Notes: generated by a model not told the origin, from the sequence alone. Positions 2,129-31,510 are shown, counted from the first letter of the stretch. The stretch: DNA of 64,000 bases from a virus (IMGVR_UViG_3300031965_000004:1-64000), one strand, 5' to 3'. Made by a program: numbers and translations.

Positions 2129-3064
2129 TCAGCCTGGGTAGACGACGCCAACAGCCGCGTTGATGTGCTCAATGTGGGTCGGCAACAGGTGGCCGCGCAG
2201 TTCAAACGCGCGGGCGTCCAGCGCGGCAAGTTCCTTGTAGGGGCGGCGCCCGTAGACCGGCGAGTAGGGCCAGACCCCCTGCTCGTAGAAGATCACCGCC
2301 AGCCCTTCGCCCAAGCCCTCGTAGGTGGACCATTCTCTGGCCCCGCTGCAACGGTTGGGGTCGACGATCGTCTCGTTAGGGCCGTAGGGACCGTCCGGCG
2401 AGTCCATACCTGGAACCAACTCGGCCGCGGCCACGAGGTAGGAGAGCGTCACCAGCGCCGATCGGTCCTCATACGATCCGCCAGCCAAATGCTCCGCCAT
2501 GCCGCTCCGCGCCCAGTGGCGGAGCTGGCGAGCGCGCCCCTCCGCCGGCTCAACGTCCGGGTCGCGGTAAGCCAGGCGGTAGGCTTCGTCGGGGTTCCGC
2601 AGGCGCGCGTCGAACAGTGGCCCGGGTGGGACGTAGGCAGGGGGGAGGAGGGGGAGGCGCGCGTGGCGCCTGGCAGCATTCGCGCGCTTGATTCGCCAGT
2701 AGACAGCGTGCAATTCCGCTGATCGCTGGGGACCTGGAAGCGCTTCGACGCGCGCCAGGAGTTCGGGCGTGTAGTAGTAGCCCCATTCTTGCAGCATGTG
2801 TCGCGCCCAAGCGCTCAGGGGCTCAGGAGGGTTGCGCTGGAACCGTCCGAAGTAGCCGCGGTCCTCGAAGTCCTGCTCCGTTCGCCCGAGCTCGCGCTGG
2901 GTCCTGGCCGTGAAGGCTTCTGACGCGGCGGTCAACTCCTGCTCGAGAAGCGCGAGGTCACCACGAAGGCGCGCGATCTCGGGCGCCGCATGGTTGAAGT
3001 ATTCGGCGTCGTCGAGCTCGAGGCGCTTGTCGTTGATCCGCTGCTCGAGTTCTGAAGGGGTCAC
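2129..3064 (-). CDS. NP-segmented multidomain protein
   Basis: Coupled GTGA start; FQRNPP and RLRNPD motifs; leader-like module after the second NP. Confidence 0.75.
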   Translation of the reverse strand: MTPSELEQRINDKRLELDDAEYFNHAAPEIARLRGDLALLEQELTAASEAFTARTQRELGRTEQDFEDRGYFGRFQRNPPEPLSAWARHMLQEWGYYYTPELLARVEALPGPQRSAELHAVYWRIKRANAARRHARLPLLPPAYVPPGPLFDARLRNPDEAYRLAYRDPDVEPAEGRARQLRHWARSGMAEHLAGGSYEDRSALVTLSYLVAAAELVPGMDSPDGPYGPNETIVDPNRCSGAREWSTYEGLGEGLAVIFYEQGVWPYSPVYGRRPYKELAALDARAFELRGHLLPTHIEHINAAVGVVYPG

Positions 3065-3873
3065 GGAAGCCTCACTGGCCAGAAGTCGTCGCGCTCGAGG
3101 TAGGGGGTCGGGTCCCAGCGTCGCGGAGAACCGGCGAGCACCCAGGGCTTCACGAGTGTGAGCGCGACTTGACCAGGGATGAGGGACTGCGGCCGGCGCG
3201 CGCCGGCCGCGACTCGAGGGCCTAAAAGAGGCAAGGCCGCCTCGGAGAGGCCCTCACTTAGAATCGCAGTCCCAATCCAGTGGATCAAGTAACCCGCAGG
3301 GCCTCCAGGGGTGGGCTGCTCCTGCCAAACCGCCGCTCGCTCCCGCATTTCCACCCAGTCGTGGGGGCCGCGGCCGCGGCCCCCGTTCTGCACGTATTCA
3401 ACAAGCGGTCGCATGACGCCGCGCGCGAAATCGGCAGTGACGCGGCGTCGCGCCGCTTCGGCGGCAGGAACAGGGCCCGCTGTGAGCGGGACGAGCGCAC
3501 GAATCCACGCAAGCGCCACGAGAACCTCGAAGACTTCGCCGTAGGCGCCGCAGTAGCCGTCGTAACGGTCCCCCCTCCGACCATAGTGAAAGAACCCTTT
3601 CAGGTCCCGCACCATGCTGTGTCCAGGCCAATCCGGGTCGTCGGGGAAGACCACGTCGTAGGGGTCGCCTTTGTGCGCCGCGAGCAGCTTCGCCCCCGGG
3701 TCGCCCAGCACGGCCAGGACGGGGATCCACTCTTCGAACAACGCCGTCTGCCCTGCGATCCCGTCAACGAACGAATAGCGCTGGAGGAGCACGTAGAGAT
3801 CGGCCCACGCCTGCGGGTCGTTCGTGTCGTAGGCGAGTTTCTGCGCGGCCCGGACGCGCGCGTCGGGCGTCAC
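3061..3873 (-). CDS. Hypothetical protein with N-terminal D-x-R helical leader module
   Basis: GTG at 3873 overlaps the upstream TGA; begins MTPDARVRAAQKLAYDTNDPQAWADL. Confidence 0.7.
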   Translation of the reverse strand: MTPDARVRAAQKLAYDTNDPQAWADLYVLLQRYSFVDGIAGQTALFEEWIPVLAVLGDPGAKLLAAHKGDPYDVVFPDDPDWPGHSMVRDLKGFFHYGRRGDRYDGYCGAYGEVFEVLVALAWIRALVPLTAGPVPAAEAARRRVTADFARGVMRPLVEYVQNGGRGRGPHDWVEMRERAAVWQEQPTPGGPAGYLIHWIGTAILSEGLSEAALPLLGPRVAAGARRPQSLIPGQVALTLVKPWVLAGSPRRWDPTPYLERDDFWPVRLP

Positions 3874-5960
3874 GGGGCGTAGGGCGCCGGGCACCCGCGC
3901 GAGACCGAATGCCCACCGCTGAGCGGCTGGAGCTCGAGGGTGTAGCGACGGCCGGTCGAAGCCTCGAGCTTTTGCTCGACCCAAGCAATCGCGACTTCCG
4001 CGACGTCAAGCCCCCGAAAGCGGTCGGCCGAATCTCGGTAGACGGTGAACGAGAATTGTCCAGTGCGGTCATTGAGCCGCGTCAGGTAGTGCGTGCGGCT
4101 CGAGGTCACGTAGCCGGGAATCTGACACGTCGCGCGCACGAGATAGAGCGTGCCGGGCGCCTTCTTGCGCGGGTTTGGGAGCCGGGCGGGGGGCGGGTAG
4201 GAGAGCGCGAATCGGGACGCGACGTAGTCACCCGAGCGGTAGTCGTGGCGCTTGCCCGTTCCGTGCTCGACCTGGCGATTCCAGAACCGATCCTGGCTCA
4301 TGTCTCGGTGGACGGCGCTTGCCAGCGGGAGCCCGAACTGCTGCTGGGCGTAGTCGGCCGCGGCCTGGTAGAGCACGCGCGGGATCTCAGCGCCGCCGAG
4401 CGCCGGCGACACCACCAGGTCCATGACAGACGCGGCCGGCTGGATCCCGGCAAAATCCCGATCGTCGCCGGCGCCCTTGAGGAGGCGGATCCTGCCGGCC
4501 CACTCCCCGTTGGGGGCGAGGGCGTTGATCTCGACGTAGCGCCCGAAGTCGCGCGGGGTCTGGACGCGATAGGCGGGGACCGCGGTGGGCAACTCCAGCC
4601 TCGCCTTGGCAGCCATTTCCGTGATTCGACGCCGCTTGTCCTCGCCGGCCATGGAGAGCTCGCAAGCTGCGGCCATGTCGTCGTCACTCATGGTGTCGAC
4701 CGAGTCTCCGGCGCGTGTAGCGTGGTAGCCGATCCGCATGGCGCATAGCCAGTGCTCGCCAGTCTCCGTGAGCCGGTAGTAGCGCCGGTTGGCGCGGGCG
4801 GTGAGCCCAAGTCTTTGTAGGTAGCCCGCTTCGGCGAGCTCCACGACGCGCTGAGCAAGAAGCGATCGTATCGCCTTGCGGACCATGGTCTCGCTGCAAC
4901 GGGTGTCGCTCGTGATCTCGCTGATATGACTGTGACCCGTCTTGCCGAGATACTCAGCGATCTCCACCTCGCACGAGTCTCCGCCGCCTCCCTCAATAAT
5001 GTTGACGGTGTCAGCGAGGCTGCCGACCGACTTCCAGTCCTGCTGCAACTCGCGGCAGCGCTCGTCGGGCAGGTCAGGAACGTAGCCGCGCTCGCTTCCC
5101 TGCCCAACGTATTTGGGGTTCGATTGCTTCTTCTCCGCGTCGTGCCAAGCGACGCCCTCGAGCTCAAGCGTGTTCTCGAGCCGGGCCGGCGACGTGTTCA
5201 AGCGTCGCGCCAGCGCATGAAAGTGGATCCCCTTAAGGCGCCGGTGCCACTGCCACTTGGGCGAGACGAAGGACCGCTTGACCTCGAGCGGGCCGTAGGC
5301 GTAGGCCACGAGAAGCGGACAGAACCCGTGCTCCTTCGCGACGGGCGCGTCGTAGGCTTGCAGGTTCTCCAGGTCGAGAAGCAACCTCGCCCCGGATCTG
5401 GTGACGTGTAGGCGCGTCCCAGCCGGGGGCAGGACAGCTCCGCAAGCGTTGATCTTCTTCATGGGGTTCCTCTCGCAGGCGGGCGGGCCGCCGGTCCACC
5501 ACGACTGGAGTTTGCCACACCGACAGAGGGCGCCGCACGAACAACCGCAGTCACTCGAGGGGTTTGGGGCCTGCGCCTTGCCCTTGACGCGAACGGCCCC
5601 GTCGCGGGTGAGCGCGGCCTCGGCCGACCCCGTGAAGGGCGCACCGCTCCGCTTGTCGAAGAAGAAGGGCCCGTGCGTCAAGCAGTTGTAGGTGATCGCG
5701 CGCCAGCCGCGCCCTGACACCTTGGCCGTGAACGCGACGAGCTCGCCCGTGAGGTAGGCGTGGACGTTCTTGCTCTGCTCGCGGGAACACCGCTTCCAGT
5801 CGGCCTCGCTAACGACGGGCAGAACGTTGCGCAAGACGACTTCAGCAACGTAGGCGCGGACACGGCCGGCGTGGCTGACGACGAAGCGCCCTCGGCTGAC
5901 GCTCCGGTGAACGCGCACGCGCTTGCCACGGAGTTCGCGTAAGATCGAGGCGTCACTCAC
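3870..5960 (-). CDS. NP-segmented polyvalent protein (phage KNVHA domain, winged HTH, GNAT-like domain)
   Basis: GTG at 5960; KNVHAYLTG..TYN domain; HISEI..SETMVRKAIRSL..RYYRLTETG winged HTH; VMDLVVSP..GIPRVLY-like GNAT segment; 4 NP motifs between domains. Confidence 0.7.
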   Translation of the reverse strand: MSDASILRELRGKRVRVHRSVSRGRFVVSHAGRVRAYVAEVVLRNVLPVVSEADWKRCSREQSKNVHAYLTGELVAFTAKVSGRGWRAITYNCLTHGPFFFDKRSGAPFTGSAEAALTRDGAVRVKGKAQAPNPSSDCGCSCGALCRCGKLQSWWTGGPPACERNPMKKINACGAVLPPAGTRLHVTRSGARLLLDLENLQAYDAPVAKEHGFCPLLVAYAYGPLEVKRSFVSPKWQWHRRLKGIHFHALARRLNTSPARLENTLELEGVAWHDAEKKQSNPKYVGQGSERGYVPDLPDERCRELQQDWKSVGSLADTVNIIEGGGGDSCEVEIAEYLGKTGHSHISEITSDTRCSETMVRKAIRSLLAQRVVELAEAGYLQRLGLTARANRRYYRLTETGEHWLCAMRIGYHATRAGDSVDTMSDDDMAAACELSMAGEDKRRRITEMAAKARLELPTAVPAYRVQTPRDFGRYVEINALAPNGEWAGRIRLLKGAGDDRDFAGIQPAASVMDLVVSPALGGAEIPRVLYQAAADYAQQQFGLPLASAVHRDMSQDRFWNRQVEHGTGKRHDYRSGDYVASRFALSYPPPARLPNPRKKAPGTLYLVRATCQIPGYVTSSRTHYLTRLNDRTGQFSFTVYRDSADRFRGLDVAEVAIAWVEQKLEASTGRRYTLELQPLSGGHSVSRGCPAPYAP

Positions 5961-8304
5961 CGTAGATTTTCCCGTGGCCACCGCCGAGCGCGCGGAGCAA
6001 GGGGACGTATTCGGCGTGGATAGCGAGGGCTTGCTTAACGACACCTTGCGGATCTGCGGGCCCTGTTCGCATGGACCATTCAAACTCAGTAGGGCTCCAG
6101 GGGCCCTCACTTGGGTATCCCGCCTCGAGCAACGCTCGAGCAAGACGACGCATTTCCAAGTGCCAGAGGGCACGATCGCGGTTGTCTGCGTATCCCACGG
6201 CCCACAGCAATTCGCCGGGGAGCCGCTCCGAGTAGAACCGGTGGCCCAACACCCCCTGCCCGATCCTGCGGATACGGTCCCCGTGCTCGTTGGCGAGCCG
6301 GTTGAGGACGGGTCCCTGTTCCGGCGTGTAGCCCCCAGGTCGCGTCCGGTCGTGCTGCAAGTCCGCCTCCAAGTGCCACCCAACGAAGTGCAGGAAGGGG
6401 TCGGGGTGATCGCGCAGGAAGTTGATCTCGCCCGAGCGGAGGTGTCGGCCGACGTAGGCGATTCGAGCCTCGGGGTCGGACGGCGGACCCGCTCGATCGA
6501 GCGCCCGATCGCTTGCGTCGGGGTTGCGTTTGATCCAAGGCGCCAGTGTGATCGAGTAGCCCCCGTGCTTGAGGGCGTAGTCGACGGACTGGCCCTGATA
6601 CTTGTGGAGGAAGACGAAGCATTCGTTGTGGCTTCCGCAGAACAGGATCTTCTCGGGAAGGTCCCGGTCGTTTTTGTCGAGACCGACGTAGGTCACGCAG
6701 TATTCGGACTCGAGCCCTGGGTTGGCGCGCTGAAGTCCCTTGCCCGGCCACCGGCGGTCGTAGGTGATGTCGAGCCCGAGCGCCTCCTCCGCCGCGGCGT
6801 CAGCTTCGGCCTCTGACCCGTGCGGGCCGGCGAGTTCGTGCCCGACCTCGTGCGCCAGCACCCCGCGCAGGTTCCGGGCGGGCAGCCAGCGCGCCTGCTC
6901 GGCGAGCTCGTAGCGAGGATCGCCTGCTCCTGCGATCTCCCCGCCCGGGAAGTAGAGCTGCGCGTAGCGGCGAGGCGAGGTCTCGTGCAGGCGCGAGAGG
7001 GACGAAGGCCAGGAGAGCGCGGGACGGCCCGGCAGCCCCCCCTCCTCGCGGAGGCGACGGAGTTGGTCGAAGACCTCGCTCCGCGGGCGGGGGAACCGGA
7101 CGCGCGGGTGCTCGTGGCCAGGGTTGGTGGGGTTCTTCTTCGGCTTCAGCGCGCGGGCCAGCCGGGCCGGGAACGCCTTGCGCATCGCGATCCGGCGCCG
7201 CTCGCGGGTGGCGTAGAGGGCCTCGCGTGGGACGTAGTAGGCGGCGAAGTAGCCTTTGGGGTAGAACGTCCCGTCCGCTGTCGTGAAGCCCTTGGAATCG
7301 GCGCTGGCCCGAACGAAGGCTGCCGCGTTGCTTCCGTGGACAGGAGCGACCACCGACTTGCCGACCATGCCTCGCCCCTGGCACCACCCGCAGGTGTCAC
7401 ACGTCCAGCGGGTCTCCATGCCGGCCTCGGGGTAGTGGGGGCAGACGAGCTCTGACCCCTCGAGCGGGAGTTGGGCGGGACCGGCCGCGCGATAGGTGCG
7501 CCATCCGTAGATCGTCTGGGCGAGGACCTGCTGGTCAGGGCTATCGACGCTCGCCATGCAGAAGTCTTTGAAGCCCTGGAATTGGGGATCGTGCCACTGA
7601 TGGGTATAGCCTGTCCACCGCGTCTGGTGTTTGAGGATCTTGCGCCAGACCGCCTCAGGCACAGCCACCGGCTCCCCGTAACTGCCGATCCGAACCGGGA
7701 ACGTGAAGGCGAAGAGATCGGCAACGTCTTCAGGCGCGACGCGGGGATACTTGCCGTCAACGTAGGCTTTGTAGATCGTGGCAGGACCTCGGCGCGTGAC
7801 GGTGACGTAGCAGCTCCGTTCCCCCGCTCGGGTCGCCGGCCGCTGCGGGTCCTTTCGCAGTTCTGCTCGAGTCGCAGGACGGACCTCGCCGCGCATTTTG
7901 CAGTCGAAGCAAATGCTGCTGTCCTGGCCGGTGTCCACGGCCTCTTGCGGGTGCATGTCGGAGCGAAGGATCCACGTTTGGATCATGCGCCCGGTCTTCA
8001 CGTTATCGCTGGCCTCGAGAAACCCGGTCGCGATCAGCACGATCGGGGCTCCGTCCATGGGGCTTGGCCCCTCCCAGATCACGAATCCGTTGGCCGCGTA
8101 GAACTTCCGACTCTGGTGGCGCTGGACCGTCTGGCCGCCGACCCAGAAGTGGGGGATCAGCATTCTGTCGGCTTGCTTGAGGGGCTTGGGCGGGTTCCCC
8201 CGCCGGTCTCCGGCGGTCCGGGCGTCGATCTCCGCCAACTCCGCCAACTCGGCCGGGCCTGGGGAGGCGAAGGCCACGCCGGGCCGGTGGGGGTGTAGGA
8301 GCAT
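5953..8304 (-). CDS. NP-segmented polyvalent protein (Cys-rich gp88/radical-SAM-like domain, HExxH zincin-like domain, others)
   Basis: NVKTG..ICFDC..CYV..GYTHQW..CDTCGWC; LAHEVGHE..EAEADA; 5 NP motifs. Confidence 0.7.
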   Translation of the reverse strand: MLLHPHRPGVAFASPGPAELAELAEIDARTAGDRRGNPPKPLKQADRMLIPHFWVGGQTVQRHQSRKFYAANGFVIWEGPSPMDGAPIVLIATGFLEASDNVKTGRMIQTWILRSDMHPQEAVDTGQDSSICFDCKMRGEVRPATRAELRKDPQRPATRAGERSCYVTVTRRGPATIYKAYVDGKYPRVAPEDVADLFAFTFPVRIGSYGEPVAVPEAVWRKILKHQTRWTGYTHQWHDPQFQGFKDFCMASVDSPDQQVLAQTIYGWRTYRAAGPAQLPLEGSELVCPHYPEAGMETRWTCDTCGWCQGRGMVGKSVVAPVHGSNAAAFVRASADSKGFTTADGTFYPKGYFAAYYVPREALYATRERRRIAMRKAFPARLARALKPKKNPTNPGHEHPRVRFPRPRSEVFDQLRRLREEGGLPGRPALSWPSSLSRLHETSPRRYAQLYFPGGEIAGAGDPRYELAEQARWLPARNLRGVLAHEVGHELAGPHGSEAEADAAAEEALGLDITYDRRWPGKGLQRANPGLESEYCVTYVGLDKNDRDLPEKILFCGSHNECFVFLHKYQGQSVDYALKHGGYSITLAPWIKRNPDASDRALDRAGPPSDPEARIAYVGRHLRSGEINFLRDHPDPFLHFVGWHLEADLQHDRTRPGGYTPEQGPVLNRLANEHGDRIRRIGQGVLGHRFYSERLPGELLWAVGYADNRDRALWHLEMRRLARALLEAGYPSEGPWSPTEFEWSMRTGPADPQGVVKQALAIHAEYVPLLRALGGGHGKIYGE

Positions 8305-8325
8305 TGCGGAAGCCTCTCACCGGCA

Positions 8326-8350: not shown

Positions 8351-8369
8351 ATCGAATCTTGATTCCCCG

Positions 8370-8394: not shown

Positions 8395-8400
8395 CACTGC

Positions 8401-8523: not shown

Positions 8524-8525
8524 GG

Positions 8526-9089
8526 TTAGACGCCTTCGAGTTTGCGTTCGAGTTTGCGCTTGAGTCGCTCATTCTCCGTGCGGAGCTGGTTCACGTCACG
8601 CACGGCCTCACCCCAACTCCCGCGCATTTGGTAGTAGGCTTCCTCGAAGTCTTGCCATTCGTGACCGTCTTCGACCGACGAGATTTGGAAGTCCCCTTCG
8701 CGGATCGTGAGGCCGCAGAGCTCGAACACGCGCTCGACGAGCGCCGTCGTTTTCGCCCCGCAGTTGTAGCTCTTACGGAAGTCGGCGAGCGTGACGTCCC
8801 GTGCCCAAGTCTCCATGGGGACGAGGTCTCCGCGCAGGGCCGGCCTCACGCCGCGCGCCCCCCACGCTTGCAGCGCAACTTTGGCAAACGCGGTCAGGAC
8901 GTTAGTCCTCATGGCCTTGCTCACGTCGCCCTCGCCGAGCCTCGCGACGGCCTCTGGGTAGGTGAGCGAGTGCAGGTCAGGGTTGCCCTCGGCACGGTTG
9001 CGCCGCACGCAGTAGGCGAGCGCATTGGCCTCCGTTGGATCCTCACAAAACGTCCGCCACGCCAACTGAACGATCGCGTCTTGACTCAT
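8526..9089 (-). CDS. RNA polymerase alpha-CTD-like (HhH) domain protein with N-terminal leader module and C-terminal coiled coil
   Basis: GGAGGA SD; TLADFRKSYNCGAKTTALVERVFELCGL resembles the alpha-CTD NxGxKS..I...L...GL motif. Confidence 0.6.
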   Translation of the reverse strand: MSQDAIVQLAWRTFCEDPTEANALAYCVRRNRAEGNPDLHSLTYPEAVARLGEGDVSKAMRTNVLTAFAKVALQAWGARGVRPALRGDLVPMETWARDVTLADFRKSYNCGAKTTALVERVFELCGLTIREGDFQISSVEDGHEWQDFEEAYYQMRGSWGEAVRDVNQLRTENERLKRKLERKLEGV

Positions 9090-11007
9090 ACTGTAGGTCC
9101 TCCACGCCAGGCTGGGCGGAAGCCCAGGTTGAAGTCTCGGAAAGCCGGCCTGTCCGGGCCCCGGGCGGCTGGACGCGCCCACCAGGCGGAGTGGTGCTGG
9201 CCGCCGCCGCGGCGGCGGCGGCGGCTGGCTGATTATAGAACGCGCTGAAGTCGCTGAAGTCGCTGAAGATGCGGATGGGAGATACCACAGTAGCGGCGGG
9301 GAAGCGTTCTGTGTCGTATAGCGGTTGGCGCCACGCGCGGGAGCCCACGGCGCCAACCGCCGCCGCGCAAGGCCGCGTCGGGTGGATAGGGTCCGAGCTC
9401 TCCTCAACCTCCAGCGGCTCGCCAGGCAGGGCGGAATCCAAAGTTGAATCTCCGCCCTGTGATCGTCCTCCGATCGGCCTGGCGACAGAAGGACGCGGTG
9501 TAGGACCAACTACCGCCGCGACCGACGCGCCGGCCGTAGGGTCCGAGCTCTGCTCACCCTCCGACGACGCGCCAAGCAGGCCTGAAGCCGAGTTCGCTGC
9601 TCCAGTCGCCCCGCCCGTCATTGAATCGCAAGGCCGAGCGGCAGAGGGACGCGGAGTAGCCCCAACCACCGCTCCGGCTGACGCGCTTGCCGTAGGGTCC
9701 GGGCCCTGCTCATCCCCCGCGATAGACGGGTCTGAAGCCGAGGTCGTTGCTCCATCCAAACACGTTTCGGCGGCGCATGGCCGAGCGGCAGACGGACGCA
9801 GCGTAACTCCAGGGGCTGGCACGAAGGACGCGCCAGACGTAGGGTCCGGGCTCTGCTCACCCTCCGCGGCGCCATGCCGGTCTGAAGCCGTGGCAAGCGC
9901 TCCAGATGCCTCGCCCGGCTGTGCCCCGCAAGCCCGACCGACAGATTTGATGGGCGTCGACCCAACCGCCGCCGCGAAAACCGAGTCGGTATGGGTAGGG
10001 TCCGGGCCCTGCTCACCCCCCGCGAATCCGTTCTCAGGCGCGCCCTCGTAATCCCGCGTCCACGCGCTTCGGGTCCATTCGAAGACGTTGCCGACCACGT
10101 CATGCAGTCCCCACGCATTGGGCTTCTTCATGCCGACCGCCTTGTGGCCGTCCCTCCAGTTGCCGCCATACCAGGCGATCTGGTCCAGGTCCGCCAAGGT
10201 GTCCCCGTTGGGATACTGGGTGTTGCTGCCAGCTCGGGTGGCGTATTCCCAGCACGCTTCAGTGGGGAGCTGAAACCCGACACGCTCCCCGGCGTCATTC
10301 CAAAGCCACGCTTGGTAGATCGCCTCGTCGGTCTCGTCGAACGCGAGCAGCCCAAGGATCGCCACGTCGACTTCCCCGTCCTCGCGCCGTGGGTGCGGAG
10401 CCAGGTGCATGGACTCGTCCCCCCACTCAACCTCAGCCCATGAGACCCACGTCTCGTCGGCGGACTTGAACCGCGCGCCAGAGCTACGCGCGAAGTCAAG
10501 CCGGTTGATGCGATCCACGACCTCGCGGCAGTGGTCCCATGACACCGACTCTACGGGGTGATCCCCCCACAACCGGCCGTCCGAGTCCATGCGGCTGAGG
10601 CGGCTTGCCCCGGGGCCTTCTGTCGGGAAGTGGCTCGGCGCCTCGCCCGTAATGCGGAACCACTCGCGCGCGGTGAACGGATACTTCGCCATCAAGAAGG
10701 GCTCGCTGAACACTCGCCTGTGTTGCGGCCTCTCGTCGTCGGATCCCTCGCCTTCAGGACTCCCCATGAGGAACTCCCCGGCGGGAATCAGCACGAAGAC
10801 CGCCCCGGTCGTCCGGTGCCGGAACTCCGGCATACCTTGGGCGTTGGCGGGCAGTTCGGTGAACAGAGTGCTAGTCGCCAACCGCAGCGCGTAGGGCACC
10901 TCGCGCCCCGTGCGCTGATACGCCGCGACCAGACCCCTTGCCGCTTCGAGGTCCCCCTTGTCCGCGTGATACGCCCGCGCTAGCAGGCTGATTCGGTCGT
11001 CGGTCAT
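9043..11007 (-). CDS. FGE-sulfatase (SUMF1 / C-type-lectin fold) domain protein; the fold-completing C-terminus lies in -1-frame cassettes
   Basis: FVLIPAGEFLMGS, ERPQH, HPVESVSW, LPTEACWEYATRAG, KPNAWGLHDVVGNVFEW; the RGG.W and GFR motifs are absent in frame 0. Confidence 0.9.
   Translation of the reverse strand: MTDDRISLLARAYHADKGDLEAARGLVAAYQRTGREVPYALRLATSTLFTELPANAQGMPEFRHRTTGAVFVLIPAGEFLMGSPEGEGSDDERPQHRRVFSEPFLMAKYPFTAREWFRITGEAPSHFPTEGPGASRLSRMDSDGRLWGDHPVESVSWDHCREVVDRINRLDFARSSGARFKSADETWVSWAEVEWGDESMHLAPHPRREDGEVDVAILGLLAFDETDEAIYQAWLWNDAGERVGFQLPTEACWEYATRAGSNTQYPNGDTLADLDQIAWYGGNWRDGHKAVGMKKPNAWGLHDVVGNVFEWTRSAWTRDYEGAPENGFAGGEQGPDPTHTDSVFAAAVGSTPIKSVGRACGAQPGEASGALATASDRHGAAEGEQSPDPTSGASFVPAPGVTLRPSAARPCAAETCLDGATTSASDPSIAGDEQGPDPTASASAGAVVGATPRPSAARPCDSMTGGATGAANSASGLLGASSEGEQSSDPTAGASVAAVVGPTPRPSVARPIGGRSQGGDSTLDSALPGEPLEVEESSDPIHPTRPCAAAVGAVGSRAWRQPLYDTERFPAATVVSPIRIFSDFSDFSAFYNQPAAAAAAAAASTTPPGGRVQPPGARTGRLSETSTWASAQPGVEDLQYESRRDRSVGVADVL
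9233..9391 (-). other. Divergent or degenerate cassette 5 (-1 frame)
   Basis: PYPPDAALRGGGWRRGLPRVAPTAIRHRTLPRRYCGISHPHLQRLQRLQRVL*; lacks GFR. Confidence 0.65.
9404..9541 (-). other. Alternative C-terminal cassette 4 (-1 frame)
   Basis: PYGRRVGRGGSWSYTASFCRQADRRTITGRRFNFGFRPAWRAAGG*. Confidence 0.9.
9554..9697 (-). other. Alternative C-terminal cassette 3 (-1 frame)
   Basis: PYGKRVSRSGGWGYSASLCRSALRFNDGRGDWSSELGFRPAWRVVGG*. Confidence 0.9.
9710..9844 (-). other. Alternative C-terminal cassette 2 (-1 frame)
   Basis: PYVWRVLRASPWSYAASVCRSAMRRRNVFGWSNDLGFRPVYRGG*. Confidence 0.9.
9857..10000 (-). other. Alternative C-terminal cassette 1 (-1 frame)
   Basis: PYPYRLGFRGGGWVDAHQICRSGLRGTAGRGIWSACHGFRPAWRRGG*. 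Confidence 0.9.
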
Positions 11008-24457: not shown

Positions 24458-25407
24458 GCCAGTTCGTCCTGCCAGGAAGCAACGAGCCGCTCAGCGCGTG
24501 GGCGGCCGAGCGCAAAGCACACCTCGCCGGTCGCCCCGTCGTTGTAAGTGTTAGCGGCGGTAAGGACTCCACCGCTGTTTGCCTGCTACTGCTCGAGGCC
24601 GAGATCGACTTCCGCTGCGTCCACATGGACACTGGCTGGGAGCACGAGGCGACCGAGCGCTACGTCCGAGAAACGCTCCCAGGGATCGTGGGCCCGATCC
24701 AGATTCTCCAAGGCACGCACGGAGGCATGGAGGGCCTGGTCAAGCACAAGGGCATGTTCCCGAGCCGCGTGCGGCGGTTCTGCACGCAAGAGCTCAAGGT
24801 CCGCCCCTTCCAGCGCTTTCTTGCGAGCCTCGACGACGAACCCGTGAACCCCATTGGGATCCGAACTGCCGAGAGCGCGGCGCGCGCCAAAATGGAGGAG
24901 TGGGACTTCAACGCTGGCTTCGACTGCGAGGTCTGGCGCCCGATCATTCGCTGGTCGTTTGACGACGTGATCGCGATTCACCAACGCCACGGGGTCGCGC
25001 CCAACCCGCTCTACCTGAAGGGCGCGACGCGCGTCGGCTGCTGGCCGTGTATCTTCTCGCGCAAGTCTGAGATCCGGCAGGTCGCTGACCTTGATCCCGG
25101 CCAGATTGATCGCCTGGAGCGGCTCGAAGCGGAGGTCGGCGTCAAGGCGACCGAGCGTCGCGTGGCCAAAGGGCTCCCCCTGGCCGACTACTCGCCGCCG
25201 ACGTTCTTTCAGGACCCGATCCGGCGCACGAACCCGACGACAGGAGAGGTCGCTCGAGGCTGCGTCCCGATCAGGGAGGTGGTTGAGTGGAGCCGGACGG
25301 CTCACGGCGGCAAGCAAGCGGAGCTGTTCGCCCCGCCCTACGACGACGGGTGTATGCGTTGGGGGATGTGCGAGACGCAACCGCCAGAGTCGGAGCCTCA
25401 AGCATGA
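24454..25407 (+). CDS. PAPS reductase family (PP-loop) protein
   Basis: SVSGGKDS, DTGWEH, RFCTQELK, NPLY..GATRVGCWPC. Confidence 0.9.
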   Translation: MSQFVLPGSNEPLSAWAAERKAHLAGRPVVVSVSGGKDSTAVCLLLLEAEIDFRCVHMDTGWEHEATERYVRETLPGIVGPIQILQGTHGGMEGLVKHKGMFPSRVRRFCTQELKVRPFQRFLASLDDEPVNPIGIRTAESAARAKMEEWDFNAGFDCEVWRPIIRWSFDDVIAIHQRHGVAPNPLYLKGATRVGCWPCIFSRKSEIRQVADLDPGQIDRLERLEAEVGVKATERRVAKGLPLADYSPPTFFQDPIRRTNPTTGEVARGCVPIREVVEWSRTAHGGKQAELFAPPYDDGCMRWGMCETQPPESEPQA

Positions 25408-25559
25408 GTGGAACAACCCTAAGTGCCTAGCGGGCAAAGGGGTTTGGTTCGCTCCGTGGGGTCGTCCTTGCGTTCAGGCCCAAACGGATGGAGGATCGGG
25501 GCCGTGATCCCTTCGTCTTCAACCACGAAAGCACCCGTGACCCTCTACACCACGTAACC

Positions 25560-25653
25560 AAAGCAGAAGGCCCGGCATTTCTACCGGGCCTTCTAACTTT
25601 ACTCGTCTGACCGCCTGAGGAAGGAAGGCTACGAGAACTACGATCAACTCAGC
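25560..25653 (-). ncRNA. Putative antisense (countertranscript) RNA upstream of rep
   Basis: Minus-strand TTGACA-N16-TACGAT promoter (25660-25687) and terminator hairpin at 25565-25594. Confidence 0.6.
25565..25600. terminator. Bidirectional terminator hairpin
   Basis: 11-bp stem AGAAGGCCCGG/CCGGGCCTTCT with T-rich tails on both strands. Confidence 0.75.
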
Positions 25654-25659
25654 ACCCCG

Positions 25660-25687
25660 ATCGTAGCCCTCCCCTCAGACGTGTCAA
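25660..25687 (-). promoter_or_regulatory. Sigma70-type promoter
   Basis: Perfect TTGACA, 16-nt spacer, TACGAT. Confidence 0.7.
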
Positions 25688-25711
25688 CGACCACTTCTGC
25701 GGGGAAACCCA

Positions 25712-25816
25712 ATGGCTCTCGGACTTCTAGCTAACCCTTTAGCGGCCAACACCTTACGCAGCGCACAAACGACCCTTCCGGCGAGGATTTTGCCGGAAGG
25801 TGAGGAGGTTTTCTGA
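25712..25816 (+). CDS. Putative 34-aa leader peptide coupled to rep
   Basis: GGGGA SD; MALGLLANPLAANTLRSAQTTLPARILPEGEEVF*; its TGA overlaps the CTG (CTGA). Confidence 0.55.
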   Translation: MALGLLANPLAANTLRSAQTTLPARILPEGEEVF

Positions 25817-28329
25817 CCACGAGCTCACTAAAATGCCCTGGCTGCGGCGGGGGCACCCACGCCAAGACGTGGGTCTACAACGAGGCCACAAGGCAACGAA
25901 TCGAGGAGACCGGGCTAGACGTCCCGAGAATCGTCGGGCCGCTGCCTAGCTACTTCGAGTGGTCCCACTACGCAAACCATCACGCTTTCACCAACGCTCG
26001 CTGCCGCGGATCGTTCGAAGCCTACACGGCCTACGTCCGACAACAGTCCTTAGGCGTCAATCCAACGGGAGAAGTCAAGGGGGACCTGCCCCTGCTCTCT
26101 TCCGTCACCTACGGAGACGGCCAGGCGAAAGATCGCAACTGCGAGGCGATCTACTTCCTGGCCCTCGACTGCGACGACGCTGGCGATTGGAGCCAGCTCC
26201 TCGATTGGTGCCAGAAAAGCGGGATCGCCGCGGTCTTCCAGCAGTCGTTCTCGAGGAGGGCTGGACGCTGGCACGTCTGGTTCCCGCTAGCGGAACCGAT
26301 TCGATTCGACCTCAACAGCAGCCCTGAGGTTCACGCCCAATACAAGAACGCCTACAGGCACATAGCGGCGGCATTGAGCGCCGTCAGCGGGTTTCCGGGC
26401 GTCGGCGGGAAGTGCGGTTTCGACCTCAAGACGGACCGCCTGGTCCAGGCCATGTATATTCCTCTGCGGACAAGCGCCGAGGCGCCAACCGCAGAAATGG
26501 TCGTCACCCAAGGTTCCGCCCTTGATTGGGTTGGGCTCCTCGACGCGACCGACTTCGACCTAGAGGCCAGCCTAGCGGCCAGGCGGGGAGGCAAGCCCAA
26601 TCCCAATCGGCGGATGCCGCGGCAAAGCAACTTCAACGCGCCTCTGCCCGTCAGCTCCGCTGAATGGGGGCCGCTTGGACAAGCCCTGCTGGCGGACGGG
26701 CGGATCGGCCGGGAGAAGAACTGGGAGAAGTTTCACGTCGTCTGCACCCACGCCGAGCGCCACACGAACGGGGTCAGTGAGAACTACGCGATCTACAGAC
26801 CCGCGAACGACACGTTCTGGTGTCCGTCTTCCGGGTGCGCTGGCGCCTCCCCCCCTCTCCACCGAGACCGCCCCGCGATCGTCTCCCGGCTCTCCGCGCA
26901 CGCCCAGGCCGTCTACGCCCGCCTCACCGACGCCAAGTTCCGAGGCGAGCGCCTCAACCGGCCGGCGAGCTGGGCCTCGCTGGCCGGTGACGAACAAGCC
27001 CTTGGCGCCTGGGTCAAGGACCAGGGGGACATGTTCCCCCAGGAGCAGGTCACCGAGGCCATGATCGGAGCTCTGCTCGCGGCCGGCTGGGACCCCGACC
27101 TGATCCGACGCGCGGCTCGCGTCGTCCTCGGGCCTGTCGCCGGCGACACGACCGCGCTCAAGGTCCTCGCCAACGCCCGGCGCAGGAAGGGGCGAGTCGC
27201 CCAACAAGGGCGTCTGCGCGACCTCCTAAACCCGCGCCAGTTGGCCGGAATCAGCGAGGCCCTCGAGAAGCTGTCGAGCGTCGGCCGCGACAAGATCGCG
27301 CGATGGGGAGGGCGCGGGACCGTCCGAGACGCGAACGCCCAATGGCTGATTGACGTGGGGGAGACGCTCCCCCTCCACGAGAAGCACTTCCGCAACACCC
27401 TGATTCGCCCGGCCGGTTGCTGTCGCTACGCCGACCACGTCATTGTGGACGGGACCCCGCAAGGGAAACGGATCCTGGTCTGCGAGTCTCCAGCGTGTGC
27501 CGAATGCTGGGTCAAGCGGGTCGAGTGCGAGGCCACGATCGTCAACCACCGGTGGGAGGAGGACGAGCGCTACGCAGTCATCAAGGTCGGGTTGCCCGAC
27601 GAGGAGAGCCTCGACCGATTCGAGAAGACCGTCTGCAAGCGGATCAAGAACAGCCCGCGGCTCAAGCTCCACGGGCGCGACGAGAAGGGGCGGCCCACGC
27701 TGACCTTCGTGGGGACCCGATCCGGACTCGCGCAAACGCGCGCGACCCTGATCGGGCCTTGCACGTCGCCCAAGCGCGCAGTGGCCTTTGCCCGGGAGCG
27801 GGCAGTCGAGGTCTCGTTCGAATGCTCGCTGGACGCGACCAAGGCCGAGGCGATCTCAGCCGTGGTTCAGGCGCGGCTCTCGCTTCACTTCCACCACGGG
27901 GGGGCCGTTCACGCTCACGACAGCGACACGCTCGAGGGGTTCGTGGGCTTCCTCCGGCCGCGGCGAAAGGAGGGGAAGCGCGGCTCGCGCCAGCTCGTCT
28001 CGCACGGGCCCGAGTCTCTGTCCTGGCCCAACCGCGAGGCGATCCGCGAGTTCTGCCGCAAGGGGGAGCCCGCCGTCGACCTCTCTGAGTGCTACTCGGT
28101 CGAGTTCCAACTCCACGACGCGAAATACGAGTGGTTCCTGCACGCTTCCGAGCGGCGGCACAGCCTCCCGAACGCGATGCAGATCGCGGCCTACAGCCGC
28201 GAGTTCCAGGCCGCCAAGGACGTGATGGACGCCCCGCGCGACCGCGACCAGGAGCGCCTCGACGAGCTCGAGGCGAAGACGGCCCCCGTCAGTTGGGCGT
28301 CGATCCCCTCGACCTACCTCCGGCTCTAA
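25813..28329 (+). CDS. AEP-superfamily primase/replication initiator, about 838 aa, non-canonical CTG start
   Basis: Frame open from TGA 25801 with no ATG/GTG/TTG until 26374. LALDCDD and SFS....RWHVWFPL lie upstream of 26374; GFD....YIP; CESPACAEC; GAGGAGGT SD before the CTG. Confidence 0.75.
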   Translation: MTTSSLKCPGCGGGTHAKTWVYNEATRQRIEETGLDVPRIVGPLPSYFEWSHYANHHAFTNARCRGSFEAYTAYVRQQSLGVNPTGEVKGDLPLLSSVTYGDGQAKDRNCEAIYFLALDCDDAGDWSQLLDWCQKSGIAAVFQQSFSRRAGRWHVWFPLAEPIRFDLNSSPEVHAQYKNAYRHIAAALSAVSGFPGVGGKCGFDLKTDRLVQAMYIPLRTSAEAPTAEMVVTQGSALDWVGLLDATDFDLEASLAARRGGKPNPNRRMPRQSNFNAPLPVSSAEWGPLGQALLADGRIGREKNWEKFHVVCTHAERHTNGVSENYAIYRPANDTFWCPSSGCAGASPPLHRDRPAIVSRLSAHAQAVYARLTDAKFRGERLNRPASWASLAGDEQALGAWVKDQGDMFPQEQVTEAMIGALLAAGWDPDLIRRAARVVLGPVAGDTTALKVLANARRRKGRVAQQGRLRDLLNPRQLAGISEALEKLSSVGRDKIARWGGRGTVRDANAQWLIDVGETLPLHEKHFRNTLIRPAGCCRYADHVIVDGTPQGKRILVCESPACAECWVKRVECEATIVNHRWEEDERYAVIKVGLPDEESLDRFEKTVCKRIKNSPRLKLHGRDEKGRPTLTFVGTRSGLAQTRATLIGPCTSPKRAVAFARERAVEVSFECSLDATKAEAISAVVQARLSLHFHHGGAVHAHDSDTLEGFVGFLRPRRKEGKRGSRQLVSHGPESLSWPNREAIREFCRKGEPAVDLSECYSVEFQLHDAKYEWFLHASERRHSLPNAMQIAAYSREFQAAKDVMDAPRDRDQERLDELEAKTAPVSWASIPSTYLRL

Positions 28330-28422
28330 CGAGTCGCAGGGTCGGCGCGCGGGTTGCGAAGCGCCGATGCCCCTACCGGTAAGGATGGGGCCCCTGAAGA
28401 ACCAGATCGTTCCAGAAGCACA

Positions 28423-28444
28423 CCACGTCGACGACGTGGCTTTT
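28423..28444 (+). terminator. Putative terminator after rep
   Basis: CCACGTC-GAC-GACGTGG followed by CTTTT. Confidence 0.5.
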
Positions 28445-28583
28445 GTCGTGTGCTGTCCACCAGGCGAAGGTCCCGAAACGGGGGGCTAGCGCTCGAAAGG
28501 GGGGGCGGCTACCCTTGTCGTGCGCTCAACGGCGTATCATGGTTACGCCCCTTGGCGAACGGGGTGCTTTCGGCGGAGGACCA

Positions 28584-28823
28584 GTGCTGAGCGATACGTG
28601 TTGGGCCTGCGGGGGGAGGCTCGACGACACCGACGGAGTCGGCCATGTTCCTGCAATCGGGGAGTCCCTCCGCTTTGCTCACGCTGCCTGTGAGCGTGCG
28701 CGAGCCGCGGCGCAACGCCGCGAGGAGCGAAAACTCAAGAAGCAGGCCAGGGCCCGAAAGAGGTCCCGCCGTGCCAAGCGAGCAAGCCGAAGATCCACCC
28801 GAGGAAGAAGCCGACGCCGGTAG
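28584..28823 (+). CDS. Small basic Zn-binding hypothetical protein
   Basis: GGAGGA SD then GTG; CWAC..HAAC; Arg-rich tail. Confidence 0.55.
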   Translation: MLSDTCWACGGRLDDTDGVGHVPAIGESLRFAHAACERARAAAQRREERKLKKQARARKRSRRAKRASRRSTRGRSRRR

Positions 28824-29250
28824 CGCGCTCTCGACGCCGACCGACGCCGACCGTCTCGAATGGGAGACCTGCACCGACGCCCTCCGCTACTTCGCCGCGA
28901 TCTCCCAGCGCCTCTCCGCGGACGAACAGGACCTCGCCGTCGAAGCGTTCTTCGCCGAGTTCGGCGTCGACGAGAGCGTGCTACCGGAGCTGGCCGAGCT
29001 CTACGCCGAAGCGACCTACTGCGCGTGGGTCACGGCGATCAGGACCCTTCCCGGCTTGGGAACGGCCTGGGTCACTTGGGCGCGGGCGACCTACCGTGAG
29101 CGTGTCGCGTTCCGCTTCGAGTGGGTCGGCCGCGAGGAGAACCGGTCGCGGAAGCTCGAGAAGGACCCGGTGGCACCCTACCGAGTCGCGGGATTCGGAG
29201 ACCGGCGCAACCCCCTCAGATTCGGGATCGAAGGCAGCACAGCCGAGTAG
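28645..29250 (+). CDS. Hypothetical protein (true start uncertain, probably downstream)
   Basis: C-terminal two thirds look coding-like. Confidence 0.5.
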   Translation: MFLQSGSPSALLTLPVSVREPRRNAARSENSRSRPGPERGPAVPSEQAEDPPEEEADAGSALSTPTDADRLEWETCTDALRYFAAISQRLSADEQDLAVEAFFAEFGVDESVLPELAELYAEATYCAWVTAIRTLPGLGTAWVTWARATYRERVAFRFEWVGREENRSRKLEKDPVAPYRVAGFGDRRNPLRFGIEGSTAE

Positions 29251-29531
29251 GGTCGCGGGTCGGAAGGCGCGATGGCGCATCGGCTGTGTTGGGCAGGCCC
29301 CCTGAGGCGAGGCGGGTCCAGTCTCCCACGAGCACCGGAACCCTCGCCCCAGAGGGCACATGGGGTAGTTGGTAGCGCCGGCCGAGGCGGTCCCCCACGA
29401 GTCAAAGCCGACCCTGGGACATGTTTGGCCTCGACCGGCGCATGATTGGTTGCGCCGGTCGCTGGCTGCCGCCCCCGCTCAAGAGCAAGGGGCTGCTTTC
29501 CCGTAGGTGCCCGCGCCCGGCGACCGGCGCA
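29238..29531 (-). ncRNA. Array of long-stem hairpin RNAs, two ending in ACCA
   Basis: Units at 29447-29531, 29370-29442, 29290-29357 and 29238-29288, directly downstream of the tRNA. Confidence 0.55.
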
Positions 29532-29605
29532 TAGCGAGAGCAGGATTCGAACCTGCGACCTCCGGCTTATGAGGCCGGCGAGCTACCTGGCTGCTCTACC
29601 CCGCG
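29532..29605 (-). tRNA. tRNA-Met(CAT), initiator-like, CCA not encoded
   Basis: CGCGGGGTAGAGCAGCCAGGTAGCTCG-CCGGC-CTCATAA-GCCGG-AGGTC-GCAGG-TTCGAAT-CCTGC-TCTCGCTA; 1:72 mismatch. Confidence 0.92.
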
Positions 29606-29614
29606 TCGAGCTCG

Positions 29615-29643
29615 AATCCTACGCTTCAACTACGACAGGGGCA
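29615..29643 (-). promoter_or_regulatory. Sigma70-type promoter for the tRNA unit
   Basis: TTGCCC-N17-TAGGAT. Confidence 0.55.
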
Positions 29644-29654
29644 AGTGCTACGAT
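29630..29654 (+). promoter_or_regulatory. CTAC-N15-TACGAT promoter giving a leaderless mRNA
   Basis: GTG start lies 6 nt after the -10 box. Confidence 0.7.
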
Positions 29655-29660
29655 CGCTTC

Positions 29661-30929
29661 GTGCCTGGCGTCGCCCCAAACCCCTTCTACACCGACCCGC
29701 GCGACATAGGAGGGGCTCGAGGCGACTACTACGAGCACGGGGCCCCTGAGTTCTGCCCCGGCTGCGGAGCTGAGGCCGACTGGCATTACGACCTCGAGGA
29801 GACGTTGGCCAGCGGGCGTGATCGGTTCTTCTGCGCCCACTGCGGTGACTTCCAAGACACCATGGCCGGGGCGAAGCCCCTTCAGCACCACCCCCCGTTG
29901 ATCTCGCAGAAGGCGATCAAGCGCGGCGCGAGCCCCTGTCCTCCGCTCGGAACGGGGTCGGTCCTGCTCCCCCCCGTTTGGTTCCGGCCTCGCGAGAGTC
30001 GCTTCCAGTTCTACGTGGGGGCCAAGCCCAACTGGCACATGACGCGCGGCCCTCGCTCGAAGCTGGACCCGCTCCCGCTCCCCGTCCCGGCCTTCGTGTC
30101 CTACCTCCAGCTTCGCAAGATCAAGGCCCTGCGTCCGGCTGTCGTTCGCTGGGCGTTGGACTCGGGCGGGTTCACCATGCTCAGCACGCATGGGCGCTGG
30201 ACGATTGGCCCCGAAACCTTCGCAGACGACGTGCGGCGCTACATTGCGGAGGTTGGCTGCCTGGACTTCGTGCCCGTGCAGGACTGGATGTGCGAGCCGC
30301 AGATCACGGCCCAGACGCGCAAGACCGTTGCGGATCACCAGCGGTTGACCGTCCAGAGCTACTTGGACTTGCGGCGCCTCGCCCCCGAGGTCCCTTGGGC
30401 GCCTGTCCTGCAAGGATTCGAGATTCGCGACTACTACCAGATTCTCGCCCTCTACCAGGAGGCGGGGGTCTCGCTCGAGGAGTTGCAGCGAGCGCCGAGA
30501 CTTGGGATCGGGAGTGTCTGTCGGAGACAGTCCACCCGGCAAGTCGCCTACATGCTGCGCGAGTTCCGCGACGGCTATGGCCTGGAGAACATGCACGGGT
30601 TCGGCTTCAAGGTTACGGGGCTGATCTACGCCGCGCGCTTCTTGGCGTCGGCCGACTCGTTTGCGTGGAGCAAGGAAGCCTACGAGACAAGGGCGCACAA
30701 CCGCCCGAGCTCGCTGGGTCACCGCCACGGTGCGAGCGGCGGTTGCCAGAACTGCCCTGACTACGCCGTGCGCTGGCGCAACCGGCTGATCGAGAAGATC
30801 CTGCTCGCCTACGAGCGCCTGCCCGACGATCAAGTGGACCTGGCGCTGGAGTGGATCGAGAAGAAGATTCCGGCGGCGTTTCAAGACGAGCTGGCGTTCG
30901 GCCAGCAGTATCGGCTGTTTCCAGAATGA
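29661..30929 (+). CDS. TGT/DpdA-like (deazaguanine transglycosylase-fold) protein with N-terminal Zn finger
   Basis: ALDSGGF, QDWMCEP, PVLQG, GIGSVCRRQ, HGFGFK, SADSFAW. Confidence 0.8.
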   Translation: MPGVAPNPFYTDPRDIGGARGDYYEHGAPEFCPGCGAEADWHYDLEETLASGRDRFFCAHCGDFQDTMAGAKPLQHHPPLISQKAIKRGASPCPPLGTGSVLLPPVWFRPRESRFQFYVGAKPNWHMTRGPRSKLDPLPLPVPAFVSYLQLRKIKALRPAVVRWALDSGGFTMLSTHGRWTIGPETFADDVRRYIAEVGCLDFVPVQDWMCEPQITAQTRKTVADHQRLTVQSYLDLRRLAPEVPWAPVLQGFEIRDYYQILALYQEAGVSLEELQRAPRLGIGSVCRRQSTRQVAYMLREFRDGYGLENMHGFGFKVTGLIYAARFLASADSFAWSKEAYETRAHNRPSSLGHRHGASGGCQNCPDYAVRWRNRLIEKILLAYERLPDDQVDLALEWIEKKIPAAFQDELAFGQQYRLFPE

Positions 30930-31510
30930 GCGACGCACGATTTCGGCACGCCGAACGAGGCCAGTCGGCGGAGGACGCAGCGGCTGTCCTACGCCACCGG
31001 ATACGAACGGGCGAACTAGACGAGCATAGAGTGGCGGTGGCTGCCTTCTTGGGCTACGCGCCGGCGTTGTTGGCGTCGGAGCCTGTGCGGCTCAACGTGC
31101 CCTCTTACGCGGCTCGCTGGTCGCGAGTTCGCGTGGTGTTGCGGTTTGGGGGCCTAGACCAGCGACTGCTTGTGACGCTTGCGGCAGACTTCGCGGAGCG
31201 GGTTCCGCAGGGGCCCGAAGGCCGGGCGGCGATCGCCGCGGCTCGAGCGTGGGTCGCTTGCCCTTGTCCCGCCCACGCTCGTGCGGCGAGGGCGGCGGCG
31301 AGGGCGGCGGCGAGGGGGGGAGCGTTGGCGTCGTCGGCTGTGGCGGCGGCGTGGGCGGCGGAGGCGGCGGCGGAGGCGGAACTGGAGGCGGCGCGGGCGG
31401 CGGCGGCGGCGGCGGCGTGGGCGGCGGGGTGGGTGTGGGCGGCGGAGGAGTCGGAAAAAGCCTGGCAGGCGGAACACATGGCGCTCGTGCTCTGCTGGAG
31501 CACGGTGTGA
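30926..31510 (+). CDS. Ala-rich helical protein with leader module and Imm5-like segment
   Basis: MSDARFRHAER..RIRTGEL..AAFLG; AADFAERV..RAAIAAARAWVACPC. Confidence 0.7.
   Translation: MSDARFRHAERGQSAEDAAAVLRHRIRTGELDEHRVAVAAFLGYAPALLASEPVRLNVPSYAARWSRVRVVLRFGGLDQRLLVTLAADFAERVPQGPEGRAAIAAARAWVACPCPAHARAARAAARAAARGGALASSAVAAAWAAEAAAEAELEAARAAAAAAAWAAGWVWAAEESEKAWQAEHMALVLCWSTV

Follow-up and report, generated by a model that had tools for sequence, protein, structure and literature searches.

A portable helical leader module at the start of unrelated proteins in a bacterial virus and in Planctomycetota genomes

Introduction

The LXG and WXG100-type hairpins, trafficking or docking domains of polymorphic toxins, are short conserved helix-turn-helix units with a tryptophan and a glycine near the turn, which form the N-terminus of many paralogous proteins with variable C-terminal domains. 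The TIGR02996 "repeat-companion" domain, a charged and helical N-terminal domain of about 40 residues, has many paralogs in Planctomycetota and Myxococcota (Gemmata, Myxococcus). Here, we describe a helical leader of about 33 residues in a bacterial virus, which heads unrelated proteins both in this virus and in metagenome-assembled genomes (MAGs) of Planctomycetota. The window, i.e. the whole stretch of DNA analysed (IMGVR_UViG_3300031965_000004:1-64000), comprises the first 64 kb of the 94,429-base viral record (the contig) and has a G+C content of 65-68%. An earlier note made from this sequence had quoted six segments, all of which were found exactly where the note had placed them. It described them as copies of a portable tag with a strict need to be N-terminal, which begins a protein or directly follows an Asn-Pro (NP) site where the protein would be cut.

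Unlike the LXG and WXG100-type hairpins, the leader is matched by no Pfam model, and the domains behind it are immunity- or enzyme-like, not toxins; we know of no matching secretion system in the Planctomycetota genomes that carry it. NCBIfam holds no model covering the leader either, and no match to TIGR02996 was obtained in six viral proteins (E<=1) or in 58 cellular proteins (E<=0.01).

Two further groups of proteins are relevant for the viral genes concerned. For polyvalent proteins, which occur in phages and conjugative elements, it has been proposed that a zincin-like peptidase within them carries out the processing (Iyer, Burroughs, Anand, de Souza, Aravind 2017, PMC5512222). Imm5, Imm5-like and DUF6931 domains (PF14423, PF21805, PF22011) are immunity proteins predicted for polymorphic toxin systems (Zhang et al. 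2012, PMC3482391). In one group of relatives, these models match the domain that follows the leader. In contrast to the known Imm5 and DUF6931 proteins, these relatives carry the leader ahead of the region covered by the Pfam models, and the leader also precedes domains of other kinds.

Self-cleavage after an asparagine is known from FlhB and YscU (N-P-T-H), from the reovirus mu1 protein (Asn-Pro) and from nodavirus and picornavirus capsids (Asn-Ala/Ser). Internal copies of the leader are generally preceded by a short motif, referred to as the seam. Its Asn is invariant and precedes Pro, Ser, Ala, Gly or Thr, as at the bonds that are cut in these systems. Unlike these systems, which involve specific folds or assembled capsids, the seam, a putative cleavage site, lies in a basic linker (Tyr-Arg-Arg-Asn).

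Results

The leader family

For the Imm5-like viral protein 30926-31510, whose N-terminal segment is segment D, a profile search of 1.84 billion database representatives gave 894 relatives at E<=0.001, the D family. The leader consensus reads M-S-D-x-x-L-R-E-L-E-R-R-W-x-E-x-G, followed by [ED]-D-E-A-x-x-L-x-x-R-x-R-x-G, and folds into helix, loop and helix over about 33 residues; in many cases the module continues to about 55 residues with a third helix that contains L-A-A-Y-L-G-H. Near-invariant columns are D3, L6, R7, L9, E10, R11, D21, L26 and G33, and the pattern proposed in the earlier note (D-x-x-x-R...D/E...A..L....R-x-G) corresponds exactly to these columns. A full-text literature search for the leader motifs yielded no paper, and neither Foldseek nor a protein atlas (scores at chance level) nor a literature search provided anything on the function of the leader. 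The leader is a real and so far uncatalogued protein module.

Position at Met1 or at an Asn seam

The position of the module was surveyed in 150 occurrences among the database representatives, which are numbered here with the prefix P. It starts at residue 1 in 98 cases and at an Asn seam in 38, the Asn being aligned with Met1 in 32 of these and lying one residue upstream in 6. Two further occurrences have NP two residues upstream, and five have the look of alternative starts. Among the last seven, P0072 and P0125 are clearly internal without a seam, and the others start at residues 2-3 or look like mis-called starts. Altogether, 40 of the 42 truly internal copies have an Asn seam at or within two residues of their start. 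The rule that the leader is either N-terminal or placed right after an Asn seam, as proposed in the earlier note, is borne out by these counts; the strict requirement for an N-terminal position is not, since P0072, P0125 and one viral copy are internal and seamless, and the leader of D is predicted to be ordered within a compact fold.

The seam has the form [Y]-R-R-N-[P/S/A]-D. Upstream of the Asn, Tyr occupies position -3 in 12/38 copies, Arg position -2 in 33/38 and Arg position -1 in 25/38. Downstream, Pro (18), Ser (9), Ala (5), Gly (2), Thr (2) or Val (1) was listed for 37/38 copies, and the next residue is Asp in 33/38. Stand-alone copies begin with Met1, a small residue and Asp, and Arg-Arg-Asn is absent from them. 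The same module thus occurs in the same register at Met1 or at the seam Asn, so that the seam behaves like a protein start. It is kept even where almost nothing precedes it: 20 of the 38 seam copies begin only 5-31 residues from the start of the protein (e.g. M-W-Y-R-R-N-S-D). Long representatives (P0008, P0009, P0045, P0048, P0077, P0116 and others) string several modules together with a seam before each, and some of them contain phage-type domains (L5 gp82-like, helix-turn-helix arrays).

Methionine aminopeptidase removes Met before small residues. Given the equivalence of Met1 and seam Asn, a cut after the Asn would leave a small residue followed by Asp, i.e. the register produced by Met removal. 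Capping of the first helix by Asn-Pro was considered as the whole explanation of the seam and rejected, as Met and Ser replace Asn and Pro in stand-alone copies and the Arg pair is missing there. Ribosome skipping of the 2A type is not indicated either: D-x-E-x-N-P-G-P was not matched and no G-P follows the seam. Reading of the sequence revealed no hydrophobic stretch as in Sec or Tat signal peptides; the leader is charged and amphipathic, with two short helices in the AlphaFold2 (AF2) model.

In P0037, P0043, P0084, P0093 and P0135, a short N-terminal peptide with Cys-x-x-Cys pairs stands directly before the Arg-Arg-Asn seam; this peptide may be a tiny zinc-binding unit.

Membership of the viral segments

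The viral segments were compared with an external profile built from 209 family modules from outside the viral genome, using hhalign and phmmer. Controls were drawn from the same genome and comprised 103 other N-termini of the contig, other NP-following windows and 160 random internal windows. A to D denote N-terminal segments, E and F internal segments following R-N-P. In the list, hhalign scores carry their probability in brackets, and phmmer figures are best bits / mean of the top ten.

10906..11007, minus strand: A, leader, residues 1-34 of the FGE-sulfatase-domain protein 9043-11007 (ATG at 11007(-), overlapping the upstream stop); supported; hhalign 24.6 (69%, 43 columns from residue 1), phmmer 14.0 / 9.8
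8985..9089, minus strand: B, residues 1-35 of protein 8526-9089 (ATG at 9089(-), GGAGG ahead); unsupported as a leader; hhalign 9.3 (0.3%), out of register, phmmer 8.6 / 5.1, inside the control range
3676..3873, minus strand: C module, residues 1-66 of protein 3061-3873 (GTG at 3873(-), overlapping the upstream stop); supported; hhalign 23.3 (50%, 54 columns), phmmer 9.9 / 7.2
30926..31093, plus strand: D module, residues 1-56 of the Imm5-like protein 30926-31510 (ATG at 30926(+), overlapping the upstream stop); 65 bits with the family hidden Markov model (HMM)
30926-31024, plus strand: leader hairpin proper of D, residues 1-33
6418..6531, minus strand: E, K-R-N-P seam and leader, residues 592-629 of the multi-module protein 5953-8304 (leader after K-R-N-P, residue 595); hhalign 33.1 (92%), in register including the seam, phmmer 21.4 / 14.0
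2495..2602, minus strand: F, L-R-N-P seam and leader, residues 155-190 of protein 2129-3064 (leader after L-R-N-P, residue 158); hhalign 19.1 (19%), or 24.0 (57%) in an alignment that includes its homolog P0156, phmmer 13.7 / 8.6
4965..5069, minus strand: copy inside protein 3870-5960, residues 298-332, beginning P-D-E-R-C-R-E-L; hhalign 33.8 (93%), phmmer 17.8 / 15.7
79151-80878 (contig gene): copy after P-N-P-G at residue 405; hhalign 23.1
67103-67717, 90062-90640, 90637-91206 and 92972-93523 (contig coordinates): four paralogs of D
Controls, other N-termini: hhalign maximum 16.3, median 8.5; phmmer maximum 10.8 / 6.8

For the other controls, hhalign reached a maximum of 13.5 in NP-following windows and a 95th percentile of 12.6 in the random internal windows. 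The six quoted segments alone were not sufficient for a profile, as the earlier note had suggested building: in leave-one-out tests, an HMM from five of them never recovered the sixth. The external profile, on the other hand, separates E, A, C and F from the controls, though not B. With the family HMM run on the contig proteome, A, B, C, E and F all stay at chance level (E at 2.9-4.6 bits), so that significance beyond D was seen only with phmmer or hhalign against the empirical controls.

Additional evidence concerns E, which aligns in BLASTP with residues 4-38 of P0127 at 46% identity, a stretch of 35 residues that contains R-N-P-D (E=2.7e-4), and matches P0045 with E=1e-6 (phmmer). A exceeds all 103 control N-termini in phmmer, and in two Planctomycetota MAGs, FGE-sulfatase genes likewise open with a leader-like stretch before this domain (19.1 and 21.6). 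The alignment of C extends to L-A-V-L-G-D-P, matching L-A-A-Y-L-G-[HD] of the family; its phmmer result is borderline, with a best value of 9.9 and a top-ten mean of 7.2 against a control maximum of 6.8. F has a single homolog, P0156, which has only the post-seam module in common with it, the alignment opening at R-x-N-P; the leader of P0156 itself gave no significant match to the family. All viral alignments except that of B keep the register with the module start. A homolog search with the last module of the E protein gave no homologs of similar length, and scans of IMG/VR with E, the D module or the seam-type alignment detected no relatives.

Taken together, D, E and the copy in 3870-5960 match the family profile clearly, and A, C, the copy in 79151-80878 and F do so more weakly. 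By these scores, D and E are solid members of the leader family and A, C and F probable ones, and membership of B is unsupported. The claim that the pattern opens four proteins accordingly holds firmly for D and with support for A and C, whereas B lies inside the control range; both internal copies after R-N-P (E and F) are in place as described. Beyond the quoted segments, six further copies were found, namely the four D paralogs and one each in 3870-5960 and 79151-80878. The virus carries at least 11 leader modules (D, its four paralogs, A, C, E, F and the copies in 3870-5960 and 79151-80878).

These viral copies largely follow the position rule. A, C, D and the four D paralogs lie at residue 1, and three of the four internal copies (E, F and the one after P-N-P-G) follow NP within two residues, NP occurring only 73 times in 26,457 residues of the virus (1.75x expectation). 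The copy in 3870-5960 is off the rule, as the residue before it is a Leu and the nearest NP, at 5115-5120, has its Pro 15 residues upstream.

Copies in Planctomycetota

In a scan of one genome per species, 64 loci of the canonical subfamily (numbered with the prefix L) were detected, nearly all of them in Planctomycetota MAGs and many per genome. In five such MAGs of 8-10 Mb, a 38-position leader profile gave at least 48-70 matches each, these counts being lower bounds with 150 candidates scored per genome. Of 81 genomes sampled evenly over the phylum, 5 were positive with 60, 27, 25, 7 and 1 matches, so the expansion is lineage-specific. The statement in the earlier note that similar leaders head proteins in Planctomycetota MAGs is therefore correct, but the expansion is restricted to one lineage of the phylum.

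About 105 cellular copies were inspected (59 plus about 45), and almost all of them have a start codon (ATG or GTG in most cases) as their first codon and no upstream seam; the exceptions are three weak second copies inside longer proteins. Residues 2-3 are SD (70), TD (16), GD, AD or VD. Across the leader codons, the proportion of synonymous differences (pS) is 0.61 and thus near saturation, and the nonsynonymous proportion (pN) is only 0.30, which indicates that the protein rather than the DNA is conserved and that selection acts on the protein sequence.

In loci L034, L049, L053, L058 and L062, only the first 33 residues or so are common and the rest differs. Pfam domains behind the leader are Imm5-like (8), DUF6931 (3), Imm5 (2), Imm21, Macro and STAS (2), and mostly there is no match at all. 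As the earlier note had supposed, the leader is portable: the same 33 or so residues precede unrelated downstream sequences and domains in Planctomycetota MAGs.

The genes around the cellular copies are heterogeneous and include kinases, tetratricopeptide repeat proteins, metabolic enzymes and transposases. No recurrent toxin or secretion gene was present among 80 open reading frames (ORFs) in the 2-kb flanks, which is a further difference from the Imm5 and DUF6931 systems, although a partner may lie farther away. Tandem arrays of leader genes occur in the MAGs. In addition, the paralogs L004/L011/L014 and likewise L007/L008, each from the same MAG, have identical upstream regions and first 50 residues or so and then diverge, as would be expected if genes had recently been duplicated or cassettes exchanged there.

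Structure of the leader and of the D core

The AF2 model of D has a predicted local distance difference test (pLDDT) value of 88 and a predicted template modelling (pTM) score of 0.82, with helices at residues 2-11, 15-27, 33-41 and onward; the leader helices reach pLDDT 85-97. Foldseek found nothing for this model in the PDB. In a wide structural search, the best match was 7jtu_B, the immunity protein of the SsdA deaminase toxin (Z 9.9, root-mean-square deviation 3.0, 130 residues), followed by two DUF416 structures (Z about 9), Z values which can be generic for helical proteins. The resemblance to 7jtu_B parallels the Imm5 and DUF6931 matches among D-type relatives: the Imm5_like model is passed by P0134 (44.7 bits) and P0008 (40.2 bits; cut-off 25), and D itself, with 20.5 bits, stays under the DUF6931 cut-off of 27. 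The matches to 7jtu_B and DUF416 cover the D model only from residue 34 or later, so that the 33-residue hairpin is not part of the matched core. The model of the F module is of low confidence (pLDDT 51) and usable for secondary structure only, with helices at 4-11 and 19-33.

Multi-module proteins of the virus

Like polyvalent proteins, the viral proteins with E, with F and at 3870-5960 and the relatives P0008, P0048 and P0077 combine unrelated modules in one polypeptide, so that at least two unrelated domains are found in a single viral polypeptide. The E protein (5953-8304) consists of a phrog_2554 domain (residues 58-332), a module with an H-E-x-x-H motif, and the leader module. The zincin-like motif H-E-V-G-H (residues 485-489, 6838-6852(-)) lies in a module of about 140 residues (6715-7134) bounded by NP sites, which is a candidate processing peptidase. 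Unlike the peptidases of polyvalent proteins, this region is not recognised by Pfam, and its best sequence match in the PDB, the metalloprotease Wss1 over the motif, is non-significant (E=1.1). The polyvalent study also differs in that neither an Arg-Arg-Asn seam nor the leader was found in it (PMC5512222); 'cleavage site' appears there only in the references and 'Imm5' nowhere.

The 3870-5960 protein begins with a Phage_L5_gp82/phrog_586-like domain, with further modules behind it. In the stretch 5466-5960 (minus strand), a Cys-rich mini-module of about 30 residues, flanked by two NP sites, follows that domain, and both modules recur at the end of the metagenomic protein P0008, with 46% identity across 164 residues. 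In the FGE-sulfatase ORF 9043-11007, the Pfam match stops at about residue 330 (profile position 206/255), and the tail (9043-10050, minus strand) is repetitive, of low complexity and overlaps gene B.

Genome setting

Bases 94287-94429 of the contig repeat bases 1-143, and this 143-base end repeat indicates a circular or terminally redundant genome, of which the contig is probably a complete copy. On a circular map, the leader-bearing genes at 90-93.5 kb adjoin the minus-strand block at 0-11 kb, in which genes with translational coupling, several of which encode multi-module proteins, succeed one another at 2.1-11 kb. Translations read by eye point to phage-type replication and DNA-modification genes in the region. 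D adjoins gene 29661-30929 on its upstream side. At 90062-93523, three D-type genes (leader plus Imm5-like domain) are clustered with gene 91960-92901, which by eye begins like a patatin-type lipase; the layout of this cluster resembles a virus-borne poly-immunity array.

Discussion

What was observed directly is the leader family with its position rule, portability and copy numbers, together with the selection on its protein sequence. A near-invariant two-helix hairpin before unrelated domains is most simply understood as a shared docking or recognition surface, and we infer that the leader binds something. It marks the start of a module, at Met1 in stand-alone genes and at the Asn of the Arg-Arg-Asn-[Pro/Ser/Ala]-Asp seam in multi-module proteins, and would act as a small autonomous handle for docking or recognition. 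Such a handle could give a common binding surface to domains as different as Imm5-like immunity folds, FGE-sulfatase, Macro, STAS and proteins without annotation, and this surface would serve a common partner or mutual pairing; the viral copies would presumably use the same partner as the cellular ones. We give the docking or recognition handle before many unrelated domains an even chance of being the correct reading.

Several points weigh against it. No partner, oligomer or binding surface was identified, and no neighbour recurs within 2 kb of the 64 cellular copies. The hairpin of D is modelled as ordered helices within one compact fold rather than as a loose tag and could accordingly be an ordinary structural element. 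The profile scores behind the membership of A, C and F are weak, and one random window reached 21.8 through a 10-column chance match (W-R-R-M-S-D-G-R-L-R), above F alone and below A and C, which makes short matches to the seam-plus-leader profile unreliable. This window lies in a 636-residue gene at 82765-84675(-), TnpB-like by eye.

The compact D model with its well-predicted leader helices would also suit an inert structural cap, i.e. the first two helices of small helical domains, inherited through duplication in one lineage and its viruses, without a common function and N-terminal only because the ancestral domain began there. Most family members are indeed all-helical proteins of 190-250 residues of the Imm5-like or DUF6931 type, and conserved neighbours are lacking. 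The same 33 residues, however, precede unrelated sequences and non-helical folds (FGE-sulfatase, Macro, STAS), the structural match of the D core omits residues 1-33, and about ten positions hardly vary among the more than 50 paralogs of a genome, although synonymous change is saturated. We consider the inert cap unlikely.

The idea of the earlier note goes further than the docking handle. There, the tag would need a free N-terminus, a cut at the NP site (in our terms, the Arg-Arg-Asn seam) would expose it, and the virus would make use of a host system, which by the counts above would read the tag in 50-70 client proteins of its own. The register of the seam speaks for it, since the Asn takes the position of Met1 and a cut would leave [P/S/A/G/T]-Asp in the register of M-[S/T/G/A/V]-D after Met removal. 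The seams retained close to protein starts, the NP sites ahead of three of the four viral internal copies despite the rarity of NP, and the absence of Arg-Arg-Asn from true N-terminal copies, unlike what pure helix capping predicts, point the same way, as does the zincin-like motif between seams in E, where the polyvalent-protein model would expect it. P0072, P0125 and the 3870-5960 protein, however, contain internal copies without a seam, and the leader is charged and folded, unlike known signal peptides. For the motif region of E, Pfam is silent and Wss1 is an insignificant match. The suggestion of a hijacked host sorting system found no backing in the 2-kb surroundings of the 64 cellular copies, where neither sorting machinery nor a recurrent neighbour was detected. 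That the seam is a true processing site giving the N-terminus of Met removal, with the leader read by an undescribed system that serves 50-70 clients per genome in one Planctomycetota lineage and into which at least 11 viral clients are fed, seems quite improbable to us, and we rate the earlier idea of a cut-exposed tag no higher.

The paralogs with identical upstream regions and leaders and different downstream parts, the tandem arrays and the restriction of the part common to F and P0156 to the region after the seam would fit a recombination handle, in which the conserved 5' coding segment provides DNA homology for swapping downstream cassettes between paralogs and between virus and host. 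This is very unlikely, since pS is near saturation with the amino acids kept: most copies are then too low in DNA identity for homologous recombination, and selection is on the protein. Chance resemblance, to be considered in a 67% G+C genome where Met-Ser/Thr-Asp starts (M-[ST]-D in many contig genes) and helices rich in Arg, Ala, Asp and Glu are common, and in view of the failed leave-one-out HMM, of B and of the random window at 21.8, is already refuted for D (65 bits) and E (33 in hhalign plus independent BLAST and phmmer matches) and scarcely credible for A, C and F, as their long in-register alignments score above all 103 control N-termini and above the remaining windows that follow NP.

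In some Planctomycetota, dozens of proteins per genome that otherwise lack annotation begin with an uncatalogued module, which one of their viruses carries as well. For Asn-Pro seams in viral multi-module proteins, this module provides a sharper and testable property, namely that Met1 and the seam Asn are alternative starting points of one module in the same register.

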